Origin: Euglena gracilis
Taxonomy: Eukaryota
Assembly (NCBI GenBank): GCA_039621445.1
Contig: CP154954.1
Coordinates: forward strand, 47,471,847-47,535,846
Length of the DNA: 64,000 nt
Direction of reading: 5' to 3'
The number at the start of each line of letters is the position of its first letter. Within the stretch, counting starts at the first letter, position 1. Shown here in pieces: positions 18,928-21,900 of this stretch. The notes below the pieces were generated by a model, which did no database searches, was not told the origin of the DNA, and was given only the letters and a program-made list of their open reading frames with translations. A program made the position numbers and the translations under genes.

Positions 18928-21900
18928 GTATTTCATCCTTCCACCGGTAAATTGACGATTGTTTTGCTGCCCAAGAATGCGTACCAGGATTTTGATTTCA
19001 TATCTCGGGCTTACAGCGATCTTACGGGAGAATCAAAAAATAATCTTGGGCGAGGGGTTGCAAGTTTTTGAGTCACCGAACACTTCTTTAATTCCATTTC
19101 CTTATCAAGATATTTTTTAAAAAATTGATTTTTTTTTACCCAGAGATTCTGTGCTTGGGCTCCACCCATTAAACCCAAATTGAACAGTCGTTCTGTTTCG
19201 CTCACACGTACGCGCGTGCACACACACACACACACACACACACACACACACACACACACACACACACACACACACACACACACACACACACACACACACA
19301 CACACACACACACAACACACAACACACAACACACACACACACACACACACACACACGCGCGCGCGCCATAAATTACTTTCAGGCTTCTTTTATTTGAAGT
19401 TTAATGCTCTATGGCCTGAAAGTTTTGCCTTTGGGGAGTGTGGCTCAGCCATCACATTTGCTTATGTGAGAGTGACAGTGGTACAATCTGGGCTCTCCTC
19501 TCATTGCCGTTGTCATTGACTTGCTTTCTTGCTGCAATTTTTGATTTTATAGTTTCTTGAACACTGCAAAAAAGTTAAAAGAATTTTCTTTGATTTCAAG
19601 AACCCTGTGTTATGCAGCCATATTTTTGCTGCTGCTGACATGGACGACCACATGGGTTGTTTGAAAAATACTGCCACACATTTATGCCTTATTGATTGCT
19701 GGGTTGTGATTGTTAATTGTGGTTGGCTTTGACCCCCCCCCAATAGTGCATGAGACCGCGCCTGTTTATTTTGACCTCAAAGGGGAGCCCAGAATCAGCG
19801 AGCGCGGTGGGCCAAAAAGTCGGAGAGTCGGACCAGGGACTGCACTTCGCAGGTGTTGAAAAACACCTGGTGTAGTGGTGTAGTGGTGGTGTGGTGCCGT
19901 AGGGGCCTTTCTGTGTATTCCTTAAGGGTCCTTAAGGGGGCGGTCCTTAACTAAAAAAACCCGTCCCTTCCGGACTGCCCTGGACTCCGGCAGGGGACCC
20001 ACAAATCCCACGCACACTACCACCCCCTCTACCAGCCCCCCCCCCTGTGGTCCAATCTGAAAAAAATTCCTGGTCTGTATACAACTGTACCAACAGTTTT
20101 GTTTGTACCAGTAGCCACCACATCTGTTCCAGTGCATCCAGTTCCAGCTGCAGGGCATTTGCACCGGTAGCTGGTCGTTTGTGGTTGCTTTTGCTCTCCT
20201 GCAAACTTTCGGTACTTTTGACACTTTTGGTGTTTTTGGCTGTGTTAAAGTTTTCGGCTACTTCTCATCCTTTTGATCAAATGTGGCCCATTTTTGGCGA
20301 CTTTACGCAGATGCGGTGAGAAAAGAGGCCAAAAAGAGGCCAAAAATTACCAAAAACAGCTGAAAGTGGACTAAAATGGAAAAAGTGGCCAAAAGCTGCA
20401 AAAAAAATAGATCAACAGTAGTCACCAAAAAAAAATATTAAAAAAACGGGTAGGAATAATCAAAACAACCGAAATGGCCAAGGTTGCATATGTTTTCAGT
20501 CGGTTGGTCGATTGGTGATTCTGCTTGTTTGGAAAACCTGATGGTTGCAAATCAAGAATGATGCTTTGTTGCAGGCATGCATTTTTTTTGAAGAATGTCG
20601 GTTTCAACCCAAGGCAGGTTTTCGAGCCTCTGAAATCACCACCCTGGGGGGGGGGGTGCCTGCTGAGCAGGCATTCAAAGACACTCAGATCCCCACGGGG
20701 GGAGGGGGGGGCACATAGCCCTCGGCGCTTGGGCACTTGGCCAAGAGATCAGGGATTAGTGGCCTGGGGGGCCTGAGTATGCTGAATTTGACGACTGTCT
20801 CAGAGTGCCCTGGAGTTCCTGGGCAGGGACCCCCCCCACCCCCCCCGGGCTTAATGCCTGCCTGGTTGTGGCCAAAACAGGCTTTTTCTGGGCTTCCAGC
20901 GCCAAAGGCGCCGGAAGTGCCCTGTTTGGCTCGGGGTGGCTTCCACTTTTTTTCTGCCAACAGGACCCCCGCCCCCTCCGCAGGCGATGGACACAACCCA
21001 CACCTGCCTCATGGTGCTGGACCTCCAGAGCGGTGGCTTCCAGCGCTTCGAGTGCCACGCGTACCTCTCCCTGGGGCTCCACATCGAGCACCTGCGGAAA
21101 CTCCTCGAGCCCATCACCCCCGCCCTCGCCCCTCCCTGTGACTGAACAATGTGGAGGGGGATTTAGACCCCCCCTTCCACGGGTGCCATTTTTAGGCCAA
21201 AAATTTTTTTGCACGACCCTGTGGGGGTCGGCGGGTGCTGTGTACTGCACAGGGTTTGTGTGGATTGTATTGCCACCAACAGGTGGGTGGGGGGGGGGGG
21301 CGAGGTTGTGGCTGCTCTGCCACCCTCACCGTGGAGGAGCCGCGGGAGCAGCTGGACATCCGCATCGAGGCTGGCCGTGGGCAGGGGGTTATTATTTGTA
21401 AGGTGTAAATTTCCAAAAAAAAATCAATTTTTGAAAACTTTTTTTTTCGGTCATTTAAGGTTTTTTGAGGCAATCTGGTCAAAAATTCTACAGCTTTTTT
21501 GTACGTTTTTTTAAAAGGTTTCAAAAACCACTTAAAAAACACCCCCTGGCGGTGGGGGACCCCCGATGGTGGAGTGGACGCTGCACCTCATCGACATCGA
21601 CGCGGAGCACATGTCCCTGCCGGAGGAGGAGGCCGCAGAGGGCAAGGTGTACACTCCCCCGACTGAATGCTGTTGTGCAGGGCCCCCAACGCGGCAGAGA
21701 GGGAAGGGAGAGTCCAAGGCGGTGCGGCCGCAGCTGCTGGCACTGTCCCATGTCCCACTCGACCTTCACTTTTCTTTTTTTTTTGCTTCTTGATCTGGCG
21801 AGTTTCCGTGGCTCCCTGCAGGCCACCTTCAGCATGGCCTCGGACGAGCTGTTCCGCCCCCGGGGATGCCCTGCATTTGGGGTGCCCCGGAGCATGTGTG

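Follow-up and report, generated by a model that had tools for sequence, protein, structure and literature searches.

An intron in a PCNA-family gene of Euglena gracilis with the layout of a CAG...CTG element plus one copy of an 8-bp target duplication

The window analysed here is a stretch of 64,000 nucleotides of Euglena gracilis DNA (GenBank assembly GCA_039621445.1, contig CP154954.1, positions 47,471,847 to 47,535,846 of the forward strand), and all coordinates count from its first letter. It harbors a gene of the PCNA family with introns that lack the spliceosomal GT-AG ends, termed nonconventional introns. [quoted passage not shown] Nonconventional intron 3 of the PCNA-family gene carries a convincing TSD remnant, and its origin is the subject of this report.

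The PCNA-family gene was delimited by exact mapping of P0001 to the genome. P0001 is the EukProt protein EG_transcript_22509 (277 aa), in which EG is taken by us to stand for Euglena gracilis. It carries the N- and C-terminal PCNA domains (Pfam PF00705 and PF02747). Exon 2 (20984-21121) is 100% identical to P0001, shows 85% identity to P0002 (record GGOE01018811.1.p1, presumably from the Euglena longa transcriptome, judged by the GGOE prefix) and is covered by RNA reads (row 21029). The gene and the parts of intron 3 are as follows.

18802-26572, plus strand: PCNA-family gene of 11 exons; of its 10 introns, 2 are GT-AG and 8 nonconventional, from the exact mapping of P0001.
21379-21553, plus strand: nonconventional intron 3, 175 nt, in the register N3-CAG...CTG-N5, from the mapping of P0001.
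21382-21548, plus strand: MITE-like element of 167 bp, 29% GC inside flanks of 63% GC.
21382-21389, plus strand: 5' inverted-repeat arm CAGGGGGT, paired with 21541-21548 in the minimum free energy and centroid folds.
21541-21548, plus strand: 3' inverted-repeat arm ACCCCCTG, paired with 21382-21389.
21374-21381, plus strand: putative TSD, 5' copy GCCGTGGG, the version retained in the mRNA according to P0001.
21549-21556, plus strand: putative TSD, 3' copy GCGGTGGG, matching the 5' copy at 7 of 8 positions.

The start of the 175-nt intron may slide over 21377-21382 in the mapping of P0001, because the flanking 8-mers repeat. The register 21379-21553, in which the cuts lie 3 nt before CAG and 5 nt after CTG (-3/+5), is among the six equivalent ones, none of which offers GT...AG. 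In this register the intron ends read GGG-CAG...CTG-GCGGT, and the downstream exon opens with a purine, G at 21554. The 175 nt missing from the mRNA, as seen through the transcript-derived P0001, correspond to the 167 bp of the element and 8 nt more. At the junction, P0001 reads EAGRG|GPPMVEW, with arginine (CGT) and not glycine at the position of the 5' 8-mer; one copy of the 8-mer is kept. The arginine codon belongs to the 5' copy, and the 5' cut therefore lies beyond position 3 of the 8-mer, as a cut at -3 needs. The target is divided as GCCGT|GGG, pyrimidine before and purine after the cut point. The earlier claim of 7/8 flanks around this intron thus held, and the P0001-mapped intron is compatible with the -3/+5 register.

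The terminal inverted repeat of the element is perfect over 8/8 positions (10/12 when extended) and forms eight consecutive pairs inward from CAG and CTG. The fold of the whole intron is not exceptional (z=-0.83). The GC content of the element is the lowest among the 18 nonconventional introns mapped in the window and is about that of one local MITE family (family C, 32%). A flank match of at least 7/8 was found in 0 of 132 control pairs that combined flanks of different introns; by a binomial estimate, the probability that any one of the 18 introns shows it by chance is about 0.04.

Splicing of nonconventional introns has been studied by others, cited here by PMC number and to the extent of the accessible text. 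The splicing code is given as 5'-N3CDG...CH'GN5-6|R (Nomura et al. 2025, PMC12501133). Knock-in experiments in E. gracilis defined the 3 nt before CAG as strict, while 5 nt after CTG were preferred and one more was tolerated. Synthetic introns of 50 bp, consisting of CAG, 12 bp of pairing and CTG, were spliced; N3-CAG, about 12 bp of pairing and CTG-N5 followed by a purine were sufficient (PMC12501133). Intron 3 agrees with this code in every part: it has no GT-AG, starts with N3-CAG, ends with CTG-N5, has a terminal helix, precedes a purine and is removed from the mRNA. It also equals an element plus one TSD copy and leaves a scarless mRNA, which is the arrangement known from introners.

Intron 3 probably arose from a short non-autonomous CAGG...CCTG transposon that landed in a coding exon, where it duplicated 8 bp; a rough probability of 60% is assigned to this origin. 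A non-autonomous DNA transposon with CAGG...CCTG ends would enter a coding exon and duplicate an 8-bp target. The nonconventional system would then place one cut 3 nt upstream of the 5' CAG and the other 5 nt downstream of the 3' CTG, removing the element together with 3+5=8 nt. In each copy of the 8-mer the cut would separate position 5 from position 6, so that one intact target copy would remain and the reading frame would be restored. Given the published code, this inference follows almost by itself: a MITE that has CAG...CTG termini and inverted repeats of 12-20 bp, and that lies between 8-bp target copies with a purine as sixth base, has all that the nonconventional system requires.

Candidate parent families are present in the window. 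A first scan looked for CAG and CTG at a distance of 40-4000 bp and bordered by the same 8-mer; it found 19 pairs. The seven MITEs named by the first-pass annotation are all among them, each with a CAG start, a CTG end and a perfect 8-bp TSD. A second scan collected inverted repeats of any sequence (at least 10/12 matches, 7-nt seed, low complexity removed) and yielded 3198 pairs, 73 of which begin with CAG. Flanks matching at 7/8 or better occurred in 7 of the 73 CAG pairs vs 11 of the 3125 others (Fisher p=6e-8), and most of these 11 have homopolymer or microsatellite flanks. A control that took each of the 64 trinucleotides as termini and counted perfect 8-bp flanks was dropped, as microsatellites and homopolymers dominated it, and a control on the reversed sequence is uninformative by symmetry. 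Altogether, 8-bp TSDs flank twelve of the CAG...CTG elements recognized in the window (perfect in 10, 7/8 in 2), and perfect 7-bp TSDs flank four. Besides the seven, the 8-bp class includes 25250-25502, 32041-32487 and 60765-61812 (perfect) as well as 44023-44249 and 4767-5064 (7/8). The characterized elements, to which no strand is assigned, are listed below.

14793-15244: MITE of family C, starting with CAGGGGGGG, TSD GTGTTATT; 32% GC; within GT-AG intron 14623-15780.
15870-16379: MITE with a 16-bp inverted repeat, TSD CTGGCCAT; within nonconventional intron 15854-16723.
25844-26104: MITE of family B (CAGGCTGTATTTTAG), TSD GTTGGGGT; within nonconventional intron 25791-26523.
36280-36703: MITE of family A with the 18-bp inverted repeat CAGGGTTCGATATAAGGA, TSD CCCGGGGG; within GT-AG intron 35056-37121.
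46964-47653: MITE of family B, TSD GTTGCCAC; a family A copy (47231-47621) is nested inside.
49562-49968: MITE of family A, TSD CCCTCTCC.
56761-57080: MITE with the 16-bp inverted repeat CAGGCTTCTTTTTAAG, TSD GTTTGGTC.
60765-61812: element of 1048 bp with the 12-bp inverted repeat CAGGCACCTATG, TSD CCCCCACC.
28726-29717: MITE of family D with a 20-bp inverted repeat starting CAGGGTTTCC, 7-bp TSD AACAGTG.
50836-51861: MITE of family D, 7-bp TSD TTTAGTC.
30065-30590 and 50560-50752: MITEs with CAGG termini and perfect 7-bp TSDs.

At least four families are multi-copy, with 2-4 copies each in the window. By start position, family A comprises 36280, 49562 and 47231; family B 25844, 46964, 4767 and 13710; family C 14793, 43268 and 44306; family D 28726 and 50836. 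Homology among the copies of a family stops at CAG and CTG. Families A-D thus occur in the multiple copies by which MITEs are recognized; the element of intron 3 does not within the window. A purine occupies TSD position 6 in 7 of the 10 perfect 8-bp TSDs. Several MITE families regularly contain internal runs of 9-13 G or C. A 285-bp element with other termini lies at 22875-23159. Its 12-bp inverted repeat is perfect and has a start other than CAG (GGCAGCCATAAT). The element is flanked by a perfect duplication of 8 bp, GACAAACA, sits in nonconventional intron 22416-23843 and is single-copy in the window.

The inverted repeats of the window MITEs measure 12-20 bp and all start with CAGG. The putative hAT affiliation of these MITEs draws on two features, how long their TSDs are and how their inverted repeats begin. 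The target consensus of Ac-type hAT elements is nTnnnnAn. In the twelve 8-bp TSDs, T is found at position 2 in eight (p=0.005) and A at position 7 in five (p=0.11); the former would agree with the Ac-type target preference. We know of no autonomous partner or transposase for the Euglena CAGG elements. Members of the hAT superfamily make 8-bp TSDs and have inverted repeats of 5-27 bp, a range that includes the window MITEs, and the repeat of one hAT MITE is CAG(G/A)GGTAGGC (PMC3517528). Both copies of family D, with its 20-bp inverted repeat, have 7-bp TSDs, and TSD length therefore looks family-specific. The 7-bp class implies a second type of transposase that acts on the same CAGG termini.

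The generality of the pattern was assessed on 18 mapped nonconventional introns: seven from an expressed gene upstream (8928-17139, RNA), eight from the PCNA-family gene (P0001) and three from a gene for a coiled-coil protein (P0004). The first-pass annotation had given the -3/+5 geometry as the usual one. Twelve of the 18 introns bear it out and have a terminal helix 3 bp or more in length (N3/N5 introns), whose termini are CAG...CTG in six cases, CAC...GTG in three and TGG...CCG, CGG...CCG and GGG...CCC in one each. Intron 16768-17138 is CAG...CTG with a 3' spacer of 6 nt. Intron 21122-21309 fits N3/N5 only in a register chosen at the protein level.

Individual introns named by the first-pass annotation fared differently. 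Intron 15854-16723 (plus strand) is confirmed by RNA, with an 11-bp terminal helix CAGGCCTGGCC and the joint 15852>16723 in 23 reads of run X21, 2 reads of X24 and one contig of X15; its flanks match at 3/8. The 2/8 flanks of intron 21122 were reproduced, for an intron that is supported at the protein level only. At 62914-63550 the geometry and the 6/8 flanks are present in the sequence, and the region is a candidate intron. The intron proposed at 59398 gained no support: the only protein found with the exon query 59266-59397, P0003, reads straight through it unspliced.

Intron 15854-16723 provides a separate observation on insertions into an existing intron. MITE 15870-16379 has inserted 13 nt inside the 5' arm of its helix (region 15857-15882), and the 8-bp duplication CTGGCCAT rebuilds this arm. 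The RNA reads show that splicing of this surrounding intron continues to use its own ends. Reads from other copies of the MITE break exactly at 15870.

TSD remnants were sought by comparison of the 8 nt before the helix with the 8 nt after it in the twelve N3/N5 introns. The numbers of identical positions were 2, 1, 2, 2, 5, 3, 7, 3, 2, 5, 3 and 5, in sum 40/96. Left flanks compared with right flanks of other introns had a mean identity of 2.64, and the permutation test gave p=0.044 with intron 3 included. Shifting the right 8-mer by 1-6 nt lowered the sum to 14-36, vs 40 at shift 0. Three introns at 5/8 are a slight excess over expectation (p=0.06). The convincing TSD remnant is carried by one intron, intron 3.

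Several observations weigh against the transposon origin of intron 3, its hAT affiliation or its extension to other introns. No second copy of the element was found in the 64-kb window by sensitive blastn, the best other match being 23 nt. In DNA run X1 the word depth of its bin was 89.8, vs 10^4-10^5 in MITE-bearing bins and 34-65 in bins of apparently single-copy sequence (with 89.8 as the top value when the bin of intron 3 is counted), where summed word depth per bin is not a copy number. With no copy in the window and a low word depth, the element is therefore not placeable in a family. The RNA-read junction of intron 3 is not among the 15 listed of 598 junctions, all 15 of which come from gene 8928-17139; splicing of intron 3 therefore rests on one transcript-derived protein record. 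Four of the 18 introns have no N3/N5 helix, and none of the 18 has ends that match a MITE family or another intron. Without intron 3, 33 of 88 positions are identical in the remaining 11 introns (permutation p=0.25). The age gradient among introns that the first-pass annotation had described is not above chance once intron 3 is set aside.

The resident MITEs add further counterevidence. The three mapped genes hold eight TSD-flanked elements, every one of them nested in a larger intron (3 GT-AG, 5 nonconventional), and none of the eight forms an intron alone. Exons make up about a tenth of these genes. The nesting is therefore compatible with neutral insertion, yet it lends no support either. 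The four MITEs with perfect 7-bp TSDs had been missed by the first-pass annotation; a cut at -3/+5 around such an element leaves a 1-nt deletion and is therefore not scarless. No transposase was noticed among 119 open reading frames of at least 130 aa, which were read by eye with no Pfam scan run. A search of the window for long open reading frames across MITE-deleted junctions gave no convincing exonic family MITE.

The view of the first-pass annotation that hAT-like MITEs act as scarless intron generators is accordingly retained in part. One fitting intron supports it; the hAT assignment, the age gradient and introns as members of MITE families are not borne out by this window. The window offers a single good example, together with a list of families that are candidate parents, and a general rule is not proven by one window. 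We infer all three parts of the larger picture, namely a transposon start of intron 3, a hAT-like family and a general route to nonconventional introns.

Two other explanations of the 8-nt repeat appear unlikely. Repair of a double-strand break with filler DNA would produce the repeat by fill-in of a staggered break, no transposase would take part, and agreement with the TSD length of the MITEs would be incidental. Intron 4 of gapC in E. agilis ACOI 323 is strain-specific, has 8-nt direct repeats at its junctions and was taken as recent; its authors ascribe the repeats to double-strand-break repair (PMC4770533). The element of intron 3, which has no family copy in the window, could be read in the same way. 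Filler DNA, however, is not expected to carry an 8-bp perfect CAGG terminal inverted repeat, as every window MITE does, or to have 29% GC like family C, and the repeat has the length typical of the dominant MITE class (12 elements). We rate the probability of break repair as low.

Comparable doubt applies to the assumption of an ordinary old nonconventional intron whose 7/8 flanks arose by chance in G-rich sequence, with 3+5=8 as a coincidence. One match of at least 7/8 among 18 introns is expected in about 4% of cases window-wide, the other introns are at background, a 7-bp-TSD class is also present and the overall fold is unexceptional. The intron that shows the match, however, also has the lowest GC among the 18, and its inverted repeat is of the CAGG type. 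Moreover, the new, strain-specific gapC intron is an independent published case with exactly 8 nt (PMC4770533). Introns with junction repeats (84.4%), called slidable, had been left out of a published motif analysis. From the published totals for E. agilis (466,382 nonconventional introns, 87,843 of them non-slidable) a slidable share of 81% is computed here (PMC12501133), vs 44% expected under uniform bases by our own calculation. This excess, too, speaks against chance, which seems improbable as the source of the repeat.

A reversed direction, in which the CAG...CTG repeats would be mobilised nonconventional introns (circles copied into DNA, or intron-cutting machinery acting on DNA), is very unlikely: it could draw on the excision of nonconventional introns as full-length circles (PMC11282704), on the lack of a noticed transposase in the by-eye reading of the window frames (no Pfam scan run) and on CAGG termini common to introns and MITEs, but perfect inverted repeats of 12-20 bp, a thousands-fold word depth and TSDs fixed at 8 or 7 bp are what marks cut-and-paste transposition, and a copy of spliced RNA would bear the 3+5 spacer nucleotides, whereas homology between family copies ends at CAG and CTG.

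A transposon origin of nonconventional introns is not a new idea. The proposal of a MITE-like origin dates from 2013 (PMC3935182) and was repeated later (PMC6221363, PMC12621601, PMC12501133), and the origin of euglenid nonconventional introns is still called unclear (PMC12501133, PMC6221363). A review from 2024 places inverted repeats at positions +4 to +6 and -8 to -6 and mentions junction repeats that it calls "TSD-like" (PMC11282704). In the Euglenozoan intron literature searched, the passages covered contained no statement that 3+5 equals the TSD length and no hAT assignment, nor did they describe actual MITE families from any Euglena genome. The interpretation given here is a sensible, apparently unstated sharpening of the published MITE hypothesis.

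In its general form, the proposal is that the splicing system is metrically matched to the resident 8-bp-TSD class. The 3+5 nt outside the helix would equal the duplicated 8 bp, and such a MITE would be a scarless intron at birth whenever it landed in an exon and the sixth base of its TSD was a purine. This generalization is tentative, and we hold it at somewhat less than an even chance. If true, it would explain the share of about 72% nonconventional introns in E. agilis, most of them with short flanking direct repeats. Families with 7-bp TSDs would be unable to seed introns and would be expected to be absent from exons. The hypothesis of 2013 would gain a quantitative prediction that can be checked in public data: young introns would be expected to have 8-nt repeats placed in a constant 5+3 register, and their ends to belong to 8-bp-TSD MITE families. 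The splicing system and the transposon family might, moreover, have shaped each other, and the introner principle, removal of an element with one TSD, would have a second, non-spliceosomal case.

Intron 3 shares with other euglenid nonconventional introns the missing GT-AG, CAG at +4 to +6, CTG at -8 to -6, the terminal helix, a purine as first exon base and precise removal from the mRNA (Nomura et al. 2025, PMC12501133; Milanowski et al. 2013 and 2016, PMC3935182 and PMC4770533). Unlike those, it keeps an 8-mer at 7/8 on both sides and is far more AT-rich than its neighbours. With intron 4 of E. agilis gapC it has the nonconventional type and the 8-nt junction repeats in common, a likeness that concerns repeat length (PMC4770533). 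The hAT MITEs, e.g. Mar of Drosophila willistoni, resemble the window elements in 8-bp TSDs, short CAGG/CAGA inverted repeats, lack of coding capacity and multiple copies; in contrast to Mar, some Euglena CAGG families make 7-bp TSDs (PMC3517528).

Transposons that behave as introns are known from other systems. Huff et al. are said to have described introner elements, i.e. transposon-derived spliceosomal introns, in 2016. Giroux et al. reportedly described the maize Dissociation (Ds) element as a de novo intron in 1994. Ds belongs to the hAT superfamily. It is thus a non-autonomous element of the same putative superfamily that is removed from a transcript as an intron. Ds splicing, unlike that of intron 3, uses cryptic spliceosomal sites and is usually imprecise. 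Introners are DNA transposons inserted in exons and spliced out with one TSD copy to a scarless mRNA, as proposed for intron 3. They are, however, removed by the spliceosome with GT/AG provided partly by the TSD, whereas a helix-measuring system with the TSD split 5+3 would act in Euglena (PMC11282704). The introner hallmark, many near-identical introns of one family in different genes, was not found among the 18 mapped introns.

The introns of the PCNA-family gene contain long (GT)n/(CA)n and ACGC-type microsatellites at 19190-19370 and 23890-24040. The expressed gene upstream (8928-17139, plus strand) has 11 RNA-verified introns, of which 4 are GT-AG and 7 nonconventional. P0004 (EG_transcript_3498) maps partially to the coiled-coil gene: residues 1-368 match with 91-98% identity and define five GT-AG and three nonconventional introns, with junctions at the protein level only. 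Residues 36-57 and 183-189 have no exact match in the window, and residues 369-805 were not found in it. P0004 probably derives from an allele or paralogue of the gene in the window, as judged from these sequence differences. At 31262-31760 of the coiled-coil gene, about 30 nt from the end of exon 2 are repeated 464 nt downstream and flank intron-like sequence. This direct repeat and the unmatched residues of P0004 suggest an allele or paralogue, or an assembly problem. At bases 12369, 12371, 12398, 14136, 14163 and 21029, the RNA runs and the DNA run agree against the window; strain or allele polymorphisms, rather than editing, explain these differences most simply.

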